DNA of 64,000 bases. It comes from a phage. The DNA lies in sequence record PQ400055.1, one strand, 5' to 3'. Of this stretch, positions 30,986 to 45,038 are shown in pieces. The translations under genes and the position numbers were made by a program. How positions within the stretch are numbered: the first letter of the stretch is position 1; each line of letters begins with the position of its first letter. The notes beneath the pieces were generated by a model. It did not search any database. It saw nothing but the letters and a program-made list of their open reading frames with translations, and was not told where the DNA came from.

Positions 30986-31466
30986 TTGCTAAATCATTGC
31001 AATATTTTAGTGCCTTAGTTTGAAATTCTGCGCTGTTAAGTTCTTCATAACGGTCATAATCACCGTTTAATGCTGCCTTTCTTGCTTCTTGTTCTATCTG
31101 CATGTCAGACATGATAATACAGCGATCCCGCGCTTTCATCTTCTCAAGTTGTATAGACTCTTCTTTCTGCTTGCGCAATTCTTCTTGACGCTTCTTTTCT
31201 TCTTGTGCTTTCTCTTCCCGCGCTTCTTTGATTGCATCCTTGAACATCTGCGTTTGTGGTGCTAAACCAACTTTAACGCGATCCACGTCTCGACGTTCCA
31301 TTTTAGAAATAAAGCATGATTCGATCTGATCATCACTTGCATATGCTGCTTTACATTCACGAAGCAAGAAAACCGGATCTGATTTAGCATTCATCATAGC
31401 TTCCATGTTGGCACAACCAGTAAGCATGAATGCAGCCGCAAGACCAATCAGTTTAATCATTTTCAT
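30981..31466 (-). CDS. lipoprotein (signal peptide with lipobox LTGC), charged coiled-coil-like
   Basis: MKMIKLIGLAAAFMLTGC.. then Lys/Glu-rich region; 161 aa. Confidence 0.6.
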   Translation of the reverse strand: MKMIKLIGLAAAFMLTGCANMEAMMNAKSDPVFLLRECKAAYASDDQIESCFISKMERRDVDRVKVGLAPQTQMFKDAIKEAREEKAQEEKKRQEELRKQKEESIQLEKMKARDRCIIMSDMQIEQEARKAALNGDYDRYEELNSAEFQTKALKYCNDLAK

Positions 31467-32287
31467 TTAGTCACCTCACCGAAAATTGTAAATTGTCTAC
31501 GATTCTCATCGCCGAAAGATTCTACTACGTCGTTTACCTTGACGCAAGTCCCTCGCGGTAAAATTACTTCACATTCGCAAGGGTTCCATGCAATTGACCC
31601 AACAACAAAACCTTTATGATCTTTTACGTCAATTACCCATGATACATTACAAGAATGTTGCATCTTTCCGGTCATTGATTCATATCGATTCTCACAATAA
31701 AGGCTAGTGCTGTTTGATAGCCATCCTCCAAAGATGATCGGTGTCATGCTGGTAGATACAAAGTTTTTAAAGGTAAACTCCTTATCTTCAATGATACGCT
31801 CTATTGTCTGAATGTCAAGATGTTGACCTCGATAAAGAGTACCGTTTAACTTTTCGGTTTTATCCATGACACAATCCATCAAATCAACAATCTCTGATAT
31901 CTCATCGGTCATGTCTTCTTCCCCTAAGAGAGCACCATTTACCCATTCGTATTGTTCAGACACATAATCACAGATTGCATTATATTCTGCTGGGGTTATG
32001 TTGTTATGTTTGTAATGTTTGAATACATTATCTCCAAAGTCTTCGGAGTGTACTTCATACATCACATTAATGATTTTCTTGACAAATCCATAATCTTGTG
32101 TCTCGCGCTCAAGGAAGCGGATAACCTTCACATAATCATCAAAGTTAATCTGATCGCTGATCATCTCAGTGATCATGTAACCATTAATCCCCTCAATGTC
32201 ATATGTTTCGATGTAATTATCCATACGTTCCATCATTGATTCGCGTGATTCTTCTGAAAGACGAAAATCCTGTAATTTCTTGAACAT
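31463..32287 (-). CDS. ADP-ribosyltransferase, short Alt-like paralog
   Basis: R-S-E triad elements LYRGQ, FVSTS, NPCECEVILPRG parallel to those in the adjacent alt; 274 aa. Confidence 0.7.
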   Translation of the reverse strand: MFKKLQDFRLSEESRESMMERMDNYIETYDIEGINGYMITEMISDQINFDDYVKVIRFLERETQDYGFVKKIINVMYEVHSEDFGDNVFKHYKHNNITPAEYNAICDYVSEQYEWVNGALLGEEDMTDEISEIVDLMDCVMDKTEKLNGTLYRGQHLDIQTIERIIEDKEFTFKNFVSTSMTPIIFGGWLSNSTSLYCENRYESMTGKMQHSCNVSWVIDVKDHKGFVVGSIAWNPCECEVILPRGTCVKVNDVVESFGDENRRQFTIFGEVTK

Positions 32288-32365: not shown

Positions 32366-34417
32366 TTACATTTTAAATTTATCTGGCATTGCGTCTACAG
32401 ATACCAGATCAGCGATAAGCTGACGTAGAGTTGCCTTATCTGCTTTCTTACGTTCGGTTTTAGCTTCGCTAATGAAGCTGGAGAAAGACAGGTCAGAAGC
32501 AGGTTTAATAACACCTTCACGGATGAATGCATCACCGTCCGCGATCATCTCGCCAGATTCTTGTAATGCTGCCAGTTCATTTTTGTTCATAATATGTGCC
32601 TCAATGTAATAAGTTTCTTGTGAATCCGTCGATGCCGTAGCACGAGTTACCGTATCAAAGGATAACACAACACCGCGAGGAAGTAAAATCTCGCATTCTT
32701 TGTAAGCAAATGCTTTGTTACCTACTGGCAATACAGGGATGTTTTCCGCGCCAGCAATGGAGAAAGCAACATTAGCGCCACCTTCACCGCGAGAGCCAGC
32801 CATAGAATCAACACCAGCAACGGCACTAGCCACGTTTGCATTCCAGCCGCCAAAAATGTTAGGTGCAAGGGAAGTGCTCACATAGTTTTTAAAGTAAAAC
32901 GCTTTTTGCTTACGTGCAGTTTCCCACATTTGCGACCGGAAGTCCATACCACGATACAGAATAGTACCCGGATCAAGTTTAACGCCATAGTTGGAGAAGG
33001 CATTATCCAGTGCATCGCACATCTTGACCAATTCTTCTGGATCTGCGATGCCTTCAAACTCTTCCAGCTTACGGTCGGTTAGGAAGTTGTTCATATTGAT
33101 GTATGCTGCATCGGCATATTCGCTCAACACAAAACCTTCCGCGCCCGGCAGATCAAGATCAATATCTGCCATCATTTCACCCATGTTGCTAGCAATTGCT
33201 TCAAACATACCGGAAGCAACATTACGTAGGGCATCTGTTTTAATCTGGGTGATATGACTACGCAGCATTTCAGCTTTTACATCTGCTGGCATAGACTGGT
33301 CTACTCGATCCATTGCCAGGGCGGTGATCTTGTTTTCGAATACTTCCTCGCTCATGATTTCTTTTAAGCGTTTGACCGAGGCTGCGATAACTTCCGCAGA
33401 CAATGGATCATATTGATCCTGAACTTTTACCAGTTCGCTTACTGCGTATTTTGCATCGGCTTCGCTTTCAAAAATAGTACGCATGAAACCATAGCGAGTG
33501 ATAATATCACTTGTCCAGTCATTCAGAGAACGGGCGGTTGAACGTTCTAAGGCTTGACGGTCAATCAGAGTATTAAACTGTTTCTTAGGTTCTGCTTCGG
33601 TGATATCTTCTTCCGGTTTAAGATTAATTTTTTCTGGATGATTCACGTAGTCGCTGTTATATGTCGCTTGAGTTTTCAGCATTTCTTCTTTAGTCAAACG
33701 AGATTTAGCCGCTACGCGTTGTTCTGCTTCCGCGTTTCGTTCTTCTTCTGACACAAGACTAGCCGCATATGCCTCATCTTTAGTCAGAGATTCACCAGTA
33801 GCCTTAGATACCCAGCGATCACCTAAATCACTTTCTACTTTAGTGAACAAGGATTCATCAAGTTTAATACCTTTAATCTTATCAATCGCCATCCCGCGAC
33901 GCTTGACAACAACTAAAGCGATCTTTTTGCTGGTCATTACTTCCTGCTGGAATACTTCAAACTTCGGTGTACGACGCACCAAACGCTCTATAACGCGCTT
34001 AACCAGTTCGGTCTTACCTTTCATGCGGGATACGTTAAAACGGAACATAACAGCGTCTAATTGCGCTTTACGGGCTGTTTCCATAACCACATCAAAAGCA
34101 CTTGACATAACTGCAATCGGGTTATCGCCTAGACCATTTTTAAGCTGTACAATACGACCGCTTTTGTTCATTTCGCACAGTACAACATGTGCGGTCTTGT
34201 CACCCATACGAATGATTTTAGGTGTTTTGTTGGTGAAGTTACAAAGACGGACAATCACATCTTTATCGCGTGTCTGTACTGCAAAAAGCTGTTTAGGATT
34301 CTGCTTAGGCTTTAAGCACTGTACCGGAGCAATACTGCCAAAGTTTTCTTCCTCTTCCGTCAACAGCCATTTCTCGAAAGATTCAATCATTAGATCGTCG
34401 ATTTCTAAGTTAAACAT
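32366..34417 (-). CDS. alt: Alt ADP-ribosyltransferase (packaged, modifies host RNA polymerase in T4)
   Basis: 683 aa (T4 Alt 682 aa); C-terminal ART motifs ILYRGM, YVSTS, YKECEILLPRG. Confidence 0.85.
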   Translation of the reverse strand: MFNLEIDDLMIESFEKWLLTEEEENFGSIAPVQCLKPKQNPKQLFAVQTRDKDVIVRLCNFTNKTPKIIRMGDKTAHVVLCEMNKSGRIVQLKNGLGDNPIAVMSSAFDVVMETARKAQLDAVMFRFNVSRMKGKTELVKRVIERLVRRTPKFEVFQQEVMTSKKIALVVVKRRGMAIDKIKGIKLDESLFTKVESDLGDRWVSKATGESLTKDEAYAASLVSEEERNAEAEQRVAAKSRLTKEEMLKTQATYNSDYVNHPEKINLKPEEDITEAEPKKQFNTLIDRQALERSTARSLNDWTSDIITRYGFMRTIFESEADAKYAVSELVKVQDQYDPLSAEVIAASVKRLKEIMSEEVFENKITALAMDRVDQSMPADVKAEMLRSHITQIKTDALRNVASGMFEAIASNMGEMMADIDLDLPGAEGFVLSEYADAAYINMNNFLTDRKLEEFEGIADPEELVKMCDALDNAFSNYGVKLDPGTILYRGMDFRSQMWETARKQKAFYFKNYVSTSLAPNIFGGWNANVASAVAGVDSMAGSRGEGGANVAFSIAGAENIPVLPVGNKAFAYKECEILLPRGVVLSFDTVTRATASTDSQETYYIEAHIMNKNELAALQESGEMIADGDAFIREGVIKPASDLSFSSFISEAKTERKKADKATLRQLIADLVSVDAMPDKFKM

Positions 34418-42382: not shown

Positions 42383-42859
42383 TTATTTTTCTTGATGCTC
42401 GCGATCGTACTTTTCGAAATAAAATTCTACTGGCTGGTCGTGGATTGACAGCAAGCCAAAGCGTTTAGCCGCTCGCAACCCCATATTGCGCTGAATGTAC
42501 TTCTGGAAGTTCTCGCGTATACACTTACGCCAGTATTCTAAGCCCATACAGCTTTTATAAAGATTGCATTGCACACACGCCGGATTCATGTTATCAAGTA
42601 TATCATGTTCCGGTTTATGCATTCCTACAACCTTATACTTCCACGATCCATCATCATTACGGGCAATTCGTCCATTTTCATCATAGACTACCTTTGAGCG
42701 TCGCAATACTGGTTTGATGTGGTCCGCGTGCCAGCGATCCCCTAGTTCCTCGCCACAATAGGCACAACGTCCACCGTATTTCATTTTCAGGATCTGGCGT
42801 TGCTCTTTCTTTGACAATTTTTTAGGTTTAGGGGCTTTCGCCCCTTCATTATCACACAT
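42383..42859 (-). CDS. HNH endonuclease (free-standing, homing-endonuclease-like)
   Basis: CAYCG..WHADHIKP..N..CVQCN: HNH zinc-finger nuclease motif. 158 aa. Confidence 0.7.
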   Translation of the reverse strand: MCDNEGAKAPKPKKLSKKEQRQILKMKYGGRCAYCGEELGDRWHADHIKPVLRRSKVVYDENGRIARNDDGSWKYKVVGMHKPEHDILDNMNPACVQCNLYKSCMGLEYWRKCIRENFQKYIQRNMGLRAAKRFGLLSIHDQPVEFYFEKYDREHQEK

Positions 42860-44354
42860 CGAATACCTCTTTTACTGTATTTGCAGTGGTCTTGTCGTAG
42901 CGAATACGTTTGATGATTGGGAGAAATAAAGAGAACTCCGGTTCATCTTCTTTACGTGATTTGCTGCGGATATACCCGTTGCATGTCATCTCAATAACTT
43001 TTCCAATCAGGTTATGACGGTCAGCCCATAACATTTCTCGGTCGAGTTCATTTCGACGATCGAACGGAATTACACGTTCAGTACCATCATCACCTTTTTC
43101 GGTTGTAGTGTCGGTTAATCCCGATCCGGTGTTAGTCATCATTCGTCCGCACGAACTACGGACAGTAAAACCGCCTACCTTATTGGGGTCTTTACTATGC
43201 GGATATACATCAACAATTTCCGCGTCGAAGTCAATCACTTCTTTAAATTTAACCTGATCTTTACTACGGCGATCTTCAAATACACCATGTAAATTTTTAA
43301 GGATAATACCTTCTAAGCCCATGTTGACATAACGATGATATACTTCGCGAGCTTCATCGATATTGTTAACTACAGTGTTTTCGATGATCTGAACACGAGG
43401 ATCGTTAAGTTCTTCAACAATCTGTTTTAGTTCTTCGAATCGATCTTTATATTGCTTCGTTGCTTTCTCGTTTCCGTAATACACATCACGGTCGATAACA
43501 TCCCAGACAGTGTAAACAATACATTGGGCTTCTTCTTTTGGAATAGTTCCTTTAAGTGATTTGTTGAGGATACCATTTCCGGTCTGACGATCTGCAACAA
43601 CGGATTCTTTCACTGCTTCCGCTACTGGCGTTAATGGCATTTCCTCTTCTTCAAATATCCATGACAGAGTACCATCATAAACGCTTTCAACGAAGTTCTG
43701 CGCTGGTGTTTGCGAAAGGGTAGGCATATATACCAATTCACCATCTAGAACAATTCCACGGCCTCGTAGACGCTCTAAAACCGCAAACAAATCATCAAGT
43801 CCTTGATAGGTATTACCTGAGCGGGTATAGATTGCTAATGTTTCCCCGTCAATATCAGCCATACCACGAGCGCCATCGCTTTTAAGTTGTGCATACGCCG
43901 GATACTTGATATTAGCAATAGTCTTATCAGAACATGACGATGCAAGGTGACACGGTTGCTGGGGGATCAGTTTCTTCCATACCTTGTTTGCAGTGGTAGC
44001 GGAACAACCACATTCCAGATCACGATTCAGGACCATCATTGCAACTTTAGCATCATCTTCTGACAAGCAAGTCAGAGTATCGGTAACTAGCTGTAATGCT
44101 GCGTTACCAGTTACTTGACGCGTGGCAAGTTTATTTTTAAAGACCTGTAATGCACCGGATAAAGACAATACAGACGAATAGCGAGATGGTTCATCGTATT
44201 TCTTTACGCCAAACGTAACCTGTTTGCAATATGCCAGATAAAAGCATTCTTTCAGTGTTTCATTGCTTGCAGATTCTTTCAGGATCTTTTCTTTCAGCGA
44301 TGTTTTGTCGGTCGCTGCAAGCTGGTTAATGATATTAAGAATTGACATTTTCAC
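42852..44354 (-). CDS. 30: ATP-dependent DNA ligase gp30
   Basis: 500 aa; FPAYAQLKSDGAR (KxDG adenylation motif), DGELVY, EGIILKN, and C-terminal motifs match T4 DNA ligase from memory. Confidence 0.9.
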   Translation of the reverse strand: MKMSILNIINQLAATDKTSLKEKILKESASNETLKECFYLAYCKQVTFGVKKYDEPSRYSSVLSLSGALQVFKNKLATRQVTGNAALQLVTDTLTCLSEDDAKVAMMVLNRDLECGCSATTANKVWKKLIPQQPCHLASSCSDKTIANIKYPAYAQLKSDGARGMADIDGETLAIYTRSGNTYQGLDDLFAVLERLRGRGIVLDGELVYMPTLSQTPAQNFVESVYDGTLSWIFEEEEMPLTPVAEAVKESVVADRQTGNGILNKSLKGTIPKEEAQCIVYTVWDVIDRDVYYGNEKATKQYKDRFEELKQIVEELNDPRVQIIENTVVNNIDEAREVYHRYVNMGLEGIILKNLHGVFEDRRSKDQVKFKEVIDFDAEIVDVYPHSKDPNKVGGFTVRSSCGRMMTNTGSGLTDTTTEKGDDGTERVIPFDRRNELDREMLWADRHNLIGKVIEMTCNGYIRSKSRKEDEPEFSLFLPIIKRIRYDKTTANTVKEVFDV

Positions 44355-44814
44355 CTCGTTTTGTTAAACGTTCACGAATATCATTGAGGATACTACAAAA
44401 TTCCGATTCAGTCAATATAGTCTTTAACGGATCAGTTCCACCTATGCTATGACGTAATTTCTTATTTCCGGTAGAGAGTAATGCTTTACAAAATTCTGGG
44501 TTATTCCGTGCCATCGTAACAAATGCCAGATGTACCAGTCTGTAATAATGCTCACTCATTCGATGAATCGGGCGACCCTGAAAATATAACATGTGATTCT
44601 CAATCTTTTCAGTTCTTCCGGTTCTTTTTGCTTTGCCACCGTGCATCAAAAAGATTTCTCTTTGTCTCTGAGGGTTCTTAAATCTTAGCCCCTGTAAAAA
44701 TCCTTCTGTGCTGTTAATATCGCAACCAAATAGACGGAATGGTCTTTTATTGAAATTACTCAATTCACCCGATGGATAAGGTCCACCCGCATAGATATCA
44801 ATTTCAGAAGTCAT
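44335..44814 (-). CDS. NADAR/YbiA-like (DUF1768) domain protein
   Basis: LSNFNKRPF..TEGFLQGLRF parallels E. coli YbiA FSNFAAWP..SEHYFQAQKF (from memory). 159 aa. Confidence 0.5.
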   Translation of the reverse strand: MTSEIDIYAGGPYPSGELSNFNKRPFRLFGCDINSTEGFLQGLRFKNPQRQREIFLMHGGKAKRTGRTEKIENHMLYFQGRPIHRMSEHYYRLVHLAFVTMARNNPEFCKALLSTGNKKLRHSIGGTDPLKTILTESEFCSILNDIRERLTKRGENVNS

Positions 44815-44989
44815 TGAAACTAATCTCGCTAATCAGAGAGAACGGATCATAATCGTCATTAGGAATATCGATAGTAATCGAATGAGGGTTTACCCATACA
44901 CCAAACTGGTCTTCTTCGGTGAATACTTCGGTATGGATTTCGTGGATGTTTACATTCATAGTTTTCATAATAAATTCCTTAATAATCAA
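44804..44989 (-). CDS. small hypothetical protein
   Basis: 61 aa ORF overlapping next gene start. Confidence 0.4.
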   Translation of the reverse strand: MIIKEFIMKTMNVNIHEIHTEVFTEEDQFGVWVNPHSITIDIPNDDYDPFSLISEISFNDF

Positions 44990-45009: not shown

Positions 45010-45038
45010 CCAAAATATAGGCGGGATTATTTCCCGCC
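45010..45038 (-). terminator. rho-independent terminator (minus) after gp31
   Basis: GGCGGGAAATAATCCCGCC hairpin with T-rich tail on minus strand. Confidence 0.55.

Follow-up and report, generated by a model that had tools for sequence, protein, structure and literature searches.

Krischvirus ortholog of T4 gene 30.3 (adfN), a predicted DNA guanine-ADP-ribose glycohydrolase

The 30.3 locus and its neighbourhood

The DNA analysed here is a stretch of 64,000 nucleotides from a phage (sequence record PQ400055.1), in the following called the window, which derives from a Krischvirus, i.e. an RB49-like coliphage. The genes at and around the locus under study are:

31463..32287, minus strand: ADP-ribosyltransferase (PF03496, E 4e-16)
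32366..34417, minus strand: ADP-ribosyltransferase (PF03496, E 2e-9)
42852..44348, minus strand: gene 30, ATP-dependent DNA ligase (PF01068, E 2.8e-22)
44335..44814, minus strand: ortholog of T4 gene 30.3 (adfN), 159 aa from ATG to TAA, single-domain phage NADAR
44804..44968, minus strand: small upstream ORF of 54 aa, read from an ATG after AAGGAA

The ligase start at 44348 follows the annotation of phage MIZ6 (99.1% identity in this region). The ATG at this position overlaps the 3′ end of 30.3 by 14 nt, and given this overlap the two genes are probably co-transcribed and translationally coupled. On the other side, the end of the small ORF, with its stop codon, and the start of 30.3 share 11 nt. 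A search for a dedicated promoter upstream of 30.3 revealed no convincing candidate. A terminator-like hairpin was observed after gene 31. The small ORF was also considered as a counterpart of T4 30.4, which was rejected as BLASTP to T4 gp30.4 yielded no alignment.

The gene order in the window is ligase, 30.3, small ORF, gene 31, 31.1, cd and pseT, and the arrangement alt...30-30.3...31-31.1-cd-pseT is common to the window and T4. In T4 the genes 30, 30.1, 30.2 and 30.3 follow each other, whereas no homologs of T4 30.1, 30.2 and 30.4-30.9 were found in the window, in which 30.3 has been kept. Since 30.1 and 30.2 stand between 30 and 30.3 in T4, their loss accounts for the contact of 30.3 with the ligase gene. 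The initial annotation had taken the ligase neighbour and two ADP-ribosyltransferases in the same genome as hints to the function of the gene. The adjoining ligase and both transferases do exist; however, the ligase adjacency is inherited T4 synteny and no evidence of function, and the transferases, which are Alt-type and located 10-12 kb from 30.3, are likewise not functional evidence. Homologs of the T4 anti-DarT factors AdfA (61.2) and AdfM (tk.4) were not detected within the window.

Family assignment and distribution

The 159-aa protein matches the Pfam model PF08010 "Bacteriophage protein GP30.3" (Phage_30_3) with 130.1 bits (E 6.5e-38, cut-off 36) over profile positions 2-138 of 138, and PHROG 652 with an E-value of 9e-45, both far past chance level. 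T4 gp30.3 is 38% identical end to end (E 6e-30), with the alignment reaching the last T4 residue. The gene at 44335..44814 is thus orthologous to T4 gene 30.3 and represents its Krischvirus (RB49-group) form; for the product, DNA guanine-ADP-ribose glycohydrolase activity is predicted. The family itself is not new, having been named and characterised by biochemistry and genetics in T4. The initial annotation had described a NADAR/YbiA-like protein without recognising the named gene 30.3.

The generic Pfam NADAR model PF08719 reached 15.6 bits (E 0.02), which is under its gathering threshold of 35.1. Therefore, the NADAR assignment rests on profile-profile and structure comparison. With hhalign, a 62-sequence family profile was aligned to E. 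coli YbiA at a probability of 95.3% (E 2.4e-8), pairing LSNFNKRPF with FSNFAAWPI and TEGFLQGLRF with SEHYFQAQKF; the YbiA alignment of these motifs, quoted in the initial annotation, was thereby reproduced. A search of PDB sequences with the family profile recovered YbiA at E 6.8e-4 and also matched the Phytophthora NADAR, and YbiA was the best match of the window protein in both structure and profile comparisons. The modelled protein has the NADAR fold; the T4 sequence was left out of the alignment used for the structure model. When the single sequence was used as phmmer query, no NADAR was matched among PDB sequences. The best match, the D-alanyl carrier protein ligase 7vhv (E 7e-4), was judged spurious because it disappeared with the family profile, which recovers YbiA and the Phytophthora NADAR instead. 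Among the PADLOC models there was no match for the window protein and none for T4 gp30.3, and in NCBIfam the NADAR anti-phage model alone was hit, far sub-threshold (14 bits vs 240).

Homologs of the family were found in 1510 phage records. A word-indexed homolog search returned 7 proteins only, and the family became visible by exhaustive representative search, which gave 967 family representatives at E <=0.001. In all 60 matching Krischvirus records the gene is present across the whole 441-bp query with at least 95% nucleotide identity, and this full-length conservation argues for a working protein. The product is labelled "hypothetical protein" in 51 of these records. The remaining ones carry gp30.3/30.3 together with conserved-hypothetical wording (5), "30.3: gp30.3" (1), T4-like phage protein (1) or no annotation (2), and none of the 60 uses NADAR or AdfN as a name. 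The label "gp30.3" is found already in the RB49, JSE and Phi1 records, the RB49 ortholog having been annotated in this way for two decades. A literature search for DarTG and Krischvirus retrieved no paper linking Krischvirus phages to DarTG.

Predicted catalytic and ligand-binding residues

Residues and structural elements were located by comparison with T4 AdfN, with the Phytophthora NADAR and with the NADAR of E. coli C7 DarG1, and their coding positions are:

44704..44706, minus strand: codon of the catalytic glutamate E37, equivalent to T4 AdfN E36 and Phytophthora NADAR E43, aligned with SEHYF of YbiA
44683..44685, minus strand: codon of R44 (AGA), at the site of the phosphate-coordinating lysine (T4 K43, Phytophthora K50, E. 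coli C7 K95)
44614..44628, minus strand: codons of K63-R64-T65-G66-R67, forming with A62 the AKxxGR motif, aligned by hhalign to Phytophthora AKKLGR (K75...R79)
44581..44583, minus strand: codon of F78, at the tryptophan site of the family (T4 W79), aligned by hhalign with the ADP-ribose-contacting Phytophthora W89
44449..44451, minus strand: codon of H122, the last-beta-strand histidine characteristic of phage NADARs, equivalent to T4 H123
44341..44409, minus strand: C-terminal alpha-helix, residues 136-158, intact in the AF2 secondary structure

E37 is invariant in alignment A2, and a glutamate occupies this position in 156 of 160 family representatives; the conserved glutamate, the absence of which had been named as evidence against a NADAR, is hence present. 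H122, which directly follows the strand 119-121 of the AF2 model, is also invariant in A2 and is a histidine in 155 of 158 representatives. The residue at this position of the last strand is a hallmark by which NADARs are told apart, being His in phage NADARs, Glu in the YbiA type and Asp in the DarG1 type (PMC11543638, PMC11125620, PMC12945103).

At 30 positions the family is conserved to at least 85%, and the window protein departs from it at two only, R44 and F78, both of which map to ADP-ribose contacts in the hhalign alignments to the Phytophthora NADAR. The change of lysine to arginine lies within the motif quoted in the initial annotation (..QGLRF vs ..QAQKF), where it had been missed. 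Seven residues past the glutamate, at position 44, 145 of 160 representatives have Lys and 11 (about 7%) have Arg, and position 78 is occupied by W (136), F (13) or Y (8). Arg44 recurs in diverse family members that are 34-60% identical to one another, and it is associated with a residue other than Trp at position 78 (Fisher p 0.02 with the clade of the window protein collapsed and without phylogenetic correction).

In the AKxxGR motif, R79 of the Phytophthora protein contacts ADP-ribose, while its K75, corresponding to K115 of the C7 NADAR, is needed in vivo and dispensable for catalysis (PMC11543638). The equivalent of C7 K115 in the window protein is K63; T4 AdfN has Q62 at this site.

Predicted function and alternative explanations

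T4 gp30.3 was renamed AdfN, for anti-DarT factor NADAR (PMC11825919). It takes ADP-ribose off DNA in vitro (PMC11825919), where guanine-ADPr hydrolysis by the T4 NADAR has been observed (PMC11125620), and deletion of adfN renders T4 sensitive to DarTG1 (PMC11825919). The gene is conditionally essential on DarTG1 hosts (HIDEN-SEQ preprint), and the deletion phenotype is specific to such hosts (PMC11825919; HIDEN-SEQ preprint). E36A, K43A and truncation of the C-terminus impair T4 AdfN, and the RB69 allele, which lacks the last 15 residues of the C-terminal helix, is inactive (PMC11825919). The reversal of DarT guanine ADP-ribosylation in response to DarTG, which the initial annotation had proposed, is thus an experimental finding for the T4 ortholog, demonstrated against host DarT1 and not against phage enzymes.

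T4 AdfN and the window protein are both single-domain proteins of about 150-160 aa that share the catalytic Glu (E36/E37), the phage-type His (H123/H122) and an intact C-terminal helix, and both genes are located in the interval from the ligase gene (30) to gene 31 in T4-superfamily genomes. They differ in K43, W79 and Q62 of T4 AdfN versus R44, F78 and K63 of the window protein, and T4 30.3 is separated from the ligase gene by 30.1 and 30.2, whereas the window gene abuts it directly. The NADARs of DarG1 (E. coli C7; Geobacter lovleyi, PDB 8bat) have Asp in the last strand in place of the His of the window protein; an electropositive channel is formed by their N-terminal extensions (PMC12945103), in contrast to the bare core found here, and they are encoded beside darT1, while the window gene has the ligase gene and a small ORF as neighbours and no DarT nearby. 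By both the last-strand Asp and the darT1 adjacency the window protein therefore falls outside the DarG1 type. AdfN-Bas32 and AdfN-Bas60 of T5-like phages and Vequintavirinae are further phage-borne NADARs that counter DarTG1 via guanine-ADPr removal; they were acquired independently, outside the gp30.3 clade to which the window protein belongs, and do not depend on phage infection to neutralise DarT1 (PMC11825919).

This analysis established the identity of the gene, its family and NADAR fold, the retained Glu, His and C-terminal helix and the synteny with T4. Activity as an enzyme, specificity for guanine and counter-defence against DarTG1 have been demonstrated for the T4 ortholog only (PMC11825919, PMC11125620, HIDEN-SEQ preprint), and we infer that the Krischvirus protein would keep T4-like activity despite Arg for Lys and Phe for Trp. 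Krischvirus 30.3 is, with good confidence, a minimal single-domain NADAR of the AdfN type that would un-tag ADP-ribosylated phage DNA against DarTG1. During infection of DarTG1-bearing E. coli, DarT1 would ADP-ribosylate guanines of the phage DNA and block its replication. The phage enzyme would then bind the ADP-ribose, with R44 and R67 coordinating the phosphates, F78 contacting the ligand and the distal ribose flanked by E37 and H122. Hydrolysis of the N-glycosidic bond that joins the ribose to N2 of guanine would restore unmodified DNA and allow replication to resume, so that the enzyme may be regarded as an orphan DarG1-like antitoxin. Counting against the AdfN role are the identity of only 38% to T4 AdfN, the R44 change, given the in vivo failure of the C7 K95R variant described below, the F78 change, the sub-threshold PF08719 score, the missing PADLOC match and the literature search for DarTG and Krischvirus, which came back empty.

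The two ligand-site substitutions are also the starting point for another explanation, namely an AdfN of the same fold and chemistry whose pocket has been retuned by R44 and F78, either shifted in specificity or weakened. Such an enzyme might be directed at a different DarT1 variant, at a different ADP-ribosyltransferase toxin with guanine as target or at guanosine-ADPr in RNA, which is also hydrolysed by the T4 NADAR; alternatively, it might be ineffective in vivo against E. coli C7-type DarTG1. That the sole two departures from the conserved positions fall on ligand contacts speaks for this explanation, as do the recurrence of Arg44 and its tie, within the limits of the test given above, to a non-Trp residue at position 78. 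Moreover, the K95R variant of the C7 DarG1 NADAR keeps hydrolysis in vitro and loses the rescue of DarT1 toxicity in vivo (PMC11543638), and NADARs that are equal in vitro differ sharply in their in vivo protection (PMC11125620). However, each of the two changes is conservative, with one basic residue replaced by another and one aromatic residue by another, every matching Krischvirus record has the gene over the full query, and none of the present results points to an alternative substrate. A retuned enzyme is accordingly considered unlikely, and that R44 and F78 have reshaped the ADP-ribose pocket in a coupled manner, shifting the toxins or substrates handled in vivo, appears slightly more doubtful again.

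Far less probable is that 30.3 serves the phage's own programme, either by clearing off-target ADP-ribose left by its Alt-type transferases or by repairing ADP-ribosylated ends together with the ligase. The two PF03496 transferases in the window and the overlap of 30.3 with the ligase start would fit such a task, but the former are distant from 30.3 and the contact with the latter was produced by gene loss. The T4 Alt and Mod enzymes modify arginines of host proteins. Furthermore, the NADARs that were tested showed no activity towards thymidine-ADPr or ADP-ribosylated phosphate ends (PMC11125620, for one), and the phenotype of the T4 deletion is restricted to DarTG1 hosts. For these reasons, a role tied to the ligase or to the Alt-type transferases was rejected. 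An N-glycosidase of the YbiA type, acting on intermediates of the riboflavin pathway or another small ribosyl compound and not on DNA, is the least probable assignment. YbiA is the best structure and profile match. Yet the Glu that is the last-strand hallmark of the YbiA subfamily is replaced by H122, and the window protein reaches 130 bits with the phage-specific model and 15.6 bits with the NADAR model; a metabolic role was rejected on these grounds. YbiA and generic NADARs (E. coli YbiA, PDB 2b3w; Phytophthora nicotianae, PDB 8bau; PF08719) have Glu in the last strand, and the roles proposed for them, such as riboflavin damage control and swarming, are cellular and not phage ones. Some reversal of cytidine-ADPr has been reported for the NADAR and YbiA families only (PMC12945103). 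Since YbiA itself hydrolyses guanine-ADPr in vitro (PMC11125620), resemblance to it is no argument against a nucleic-acid substrate.

As tentative as the coupled change of the pocket is a further prediction from the difference between K63 and T4 Q62. Q62 could explain why T4 AdfN fails to neutralise DarT1 outside T-even infection, and a different behaviour might thus be expected of the Krischvirus protein or of T4 AdfN with Q62K. In practical terms, the value of the present results lies in annotation, as the gene can now be labelled as a predicted anti-DarTG1 DNA ADP-ribosylglycohydrolase. Their scientific value is modest: the natural Arg and Phe variants, and the Lys/Gln difference at a site implicated in in vivo specificity, are ready-made mutants with which to address an issue from the AdfN papers, namely that NADARs alike in vitro protect only in particular contexts.

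Family assignment and relatives of the 30.3 gene

An open reading frame running from ATG to TAA and encoding 159 aa occupies exactly 44335..44814 of the window (minus strand). Its product matched the Pfam family PF08010 ("Bacteriophage protein GP30.3") with a score of 130 bits (cut-off 36; E 6.5e-38), the alignment covering the entire model; it also matched PHROG 652 (E 9e-45) and was aligned by BLASTP over its entire length with gp30.3 of phage T4 at 38% identity (E 6e-30); the ORF and its family match are real and far beyond chance. The initial annotation had proposed a NADAR/YbiA-like protein here, and the two motifs it quoted were recovered in the translation. The generic NADAR model PF08719 matched weakly and below threshold (E 0.02, 15.6 bits against 35.1) and by itself would not have proved NADAR membership, which is supported by profile and structure comparison instead. 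In NCBIfam, a NADAR anti-phage model scored far below threshold and nothing else matched.

An exhaustive HMMER search at the 50% identity cluster level returned 967 representatives at E 0.001 or better, and homologs were detected by tblastn in 1510 phage records with hosts including Escherichia, Klebsiella, Aeromonas, Acinetobacter and Vibrio. The best PDB sequence matches of a 63-member family profile were E. coli YbiA (2b3w, E 6.8e-4) and a Phytophthora NADAR (8bau), to which hhalign assigned probabilities of 95.3% (E 2.4e-8) and 61.5% (E 7.8e-5), respectively. The AlphaFold2 model of the window protein, built with 62 sequences, was very confident (pLDDT 95.5, pTM 0.90). Among metagenomic relatives, gp30.3-type domains were found in fusion with a calcineurin-like metallophosphatase (P0064), an alpha/beta-hydrolase/UPF0227 domain (P0059) or BspA-type leucine-rich repeats (P0045), duplicated in tandem (P0013, P0014), and at the C-terminus of many proteins of 450-500 aa whose preceding region was without a Pfam match.

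The 2.6 kb around the gene were 98.7-99.1% identical to the 15 listed of 60 matches and at least 95% identical across all 60. These relatives, which infect E. coli, belong to the genus Krischvirus (RB49 group), and all 60 matching Krischvirus records span the whole 441-bp gene query at 95-100% nucleotide identity. The gene is labelled "30.3: gp30.3 conserved hypothetical protein" in RB49, JSE and Phi1 and "hypothetical protein" in most newer Krischvirus records. Because the literature already covers family, fold assignment and function, and gp30.3 is a long-standing annotation of the RB49 gene, the finding is already known.

Gene neighbourhood

The features next to the gene, and the two transferases invoked in the initial annotation, are as follows.

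ATG at 44348 (annotated), ATP-dependent DNA ligase (PF01068), the next gene downstream; its start shares 14 nt with the end of 30.3
44804..44968, minus strand, small upstream ORF of 54 aa with a good ribosome-binding site, hypothetical in phage record MIZ6; its end overlaps the start of 30.3 by 11 nt
31463..32287, ADP-ribosyltransferase (PF03496)
32366..34417, ADP-ribosyltransferase (PF03496)

The 54-aa ORF does not resemble T4 gp30.4, and no Pfam model reached its threshold with it. Farther upstream lie gene 31 (GroES-like co-chaperonin), a 31.1 homolog, dCMP deaminase and polynucleotide kinase, in agreement with the T4 order alt, alt.1, 30, 30.1, 30.2, 30.3, 30.4...31, 31.1, cd. When T4 proteins were compared with the window by tblastn, 30.3 and 31.1 were the only small genes tested for which homologs were found; 30.1, 30.2, 30.4-30.9 and rIII gave none, nor did the other T4 anti-DarT factors, AdfA (gp61.2) and AdfM (Tk.4 macrodomain). 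Since the T4 order is shared and genes such as 30.1 and 30.2 are absent from the window, the adjacency to the ligase, which had been read as a clue to function, is inherited synteny tightened by gene loss and not an independent functional clue.

Directly downstream of the ligase, an HNH endonuclease ORF (PF01844; 42383..42859, minus strand) overlaps the ligase end by 8 nt; because alt.1 occupies the corresponding place in T4, it resembles the insertion of a mobile homing endonuclease. Between gene 31 and the small ORF, close behind gene 31, sits a strong terminator-like hairpin, GGCGGGAAATAATCCCGCC (45020..45038, minus strand), followed by a T-rich tail. A consensus scan found no minus-strand promoter between this hairpin and 30.3, its sole hit in that stretch being on the opposite strand.

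Residues of the ADP-ribose pocket

Residues were mapped by alignment to T4 gp30.3, the Phytophthora NADAR and YbiA, with the NADAR of E. coli C7 DarG1 (C7) as a further reference, and counted over 160 family representatives.

Key residues of the window protein and their counterparts
E37: T4 E36, Phytophthora E43; Glu in 156/160
R44 (44683..44685): T4 K43, Phytophthora K50, C7 K95; Lys 145, Arg 11
K63 (44626..44628): T4 Q62 (L001:6308-6766, T4 gene 30.3), Phytophthora K75, C7 K115; Lys in 130/160
R67: Phytophthora R79
F78 (44581..44583): T4 W79, Phytophthora W89; Trp 136, Phe 13, Tyr 8
H122: T4 H123, the phage-type His; His in 155 of about 160

The conserved glutamate expected of a NADAR is therefore present as E37, and the C-terminal helix (residues 136-158) is intact in the AlphaFold2 model. 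Thirty positions reach at least 85% conservation in the family, and the window protein departs from them at R44 and F78 alone; both changes are conservative, and both map to ADP-ribose-contacting residues of the Phytophthora structure. Family members bearing Arg at the first site are diverse (34-60% mutual identity). Residues other than Trp at position 78 were commoner with Arg than with Lys at the R44 site (Fisher p 0.0016, raw; 4/9 Arg against 17/144 Lys with the window clade collapsed, p 0.02, not phylogeny-corrected), a hint from sequence comparison of a coupled change that may remodel the ADP-ribose pocket.

Proposed function and alternatives

Structures and catalytic residues of NADARs were defined by Schuller et al. 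(PMC11543638), in whose scheme the last strand of phage NADARs carries His where YbiA-type proteins have Glu and DarG1 NADARs Asp. Johannesman et al. (Nat Commun 2025, PMC11825919) mapped the resistance of T-even phages to DarTG1, a bacterial toxin-antitoxin defence, to gene 30.3, renamed adfN. T4 AdfN strips ADP-ribose from DarT1-modified DNA in vitro and does not act on the thymidine modification of DarT2; its deletion makes T4 sensitive to DarTG1, and it is weakened by E36A, by K43A and by loss of 15 C-terminal residues, as occurs naturally in the RB69 allele (PMC11825919). An independent transposon-sequencing preprint found the gene conditionally essential on DarTG1 hosts. Later papers added activity on RNA guanosine-ADPr and reported cytidine-ADPr reversal for the NADAR and YbiA families only.

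The window protein has the profile score, fold, Glu, His, C-terminal helix and synteny of the gp30.3/AdfN family; it lacks the last-strand Glu of the YbiA subfamily, and neither the Asp nor the neighbouring darT1 of DarG1 antitoxins was found. The central suggestion of the initial annotation, a NADAR reversing guanine ADP-ribosylation by DarT, is supported, as this role was shown for the T4 ortholog; its contextual arguments are unsupported. The two ADP-ribosyltransferases are real; they are of the Alt type and 10-12 kb distant. That the protein reverses the phage's own ADP-ribosylation or serves ligase-linked repair is very improbable, since in T4 the phenotype is confined to DarTG1 hosts and the gene does not adjoin the ligase; a YbiA-type small-molecule glycosidase, at odds with the His hallmark, is hardly credible.

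A variant retuned or weakened by R44 and F78 is rather unlikely. The equivalent K95R in C7 NADAR kept hydrolysis in vitro but lost the rescue of DarT1 toxicity in vivo, and K115 there, although not needed for catalysis, is essential to the antitoxin role in vivo (PMC11543638). T4 NADAR hydrolysed guanine-ADPr in vitro but did not rescue uninfected cells from DarT1 (PMC11125620); its Q62 at the K63 site might relate to the dependence of AdfN on T-even infection. Activity and a counter-defence role have been demonstrated in T4 only, and the window protein is, with good probability, an orphan-antitoxin-like DNA ADP-ribosylglycohydrolase in which R44 and F78 would be compatible with the AdfN role. 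On a DarTG1-positive host, DarT1 would ADP-ribosylate guanine N2 of the phage DNA, the phage NADAR would bind the ADP-ribose and hydrolyse the ribose-guanine bond, and replication would be freed.
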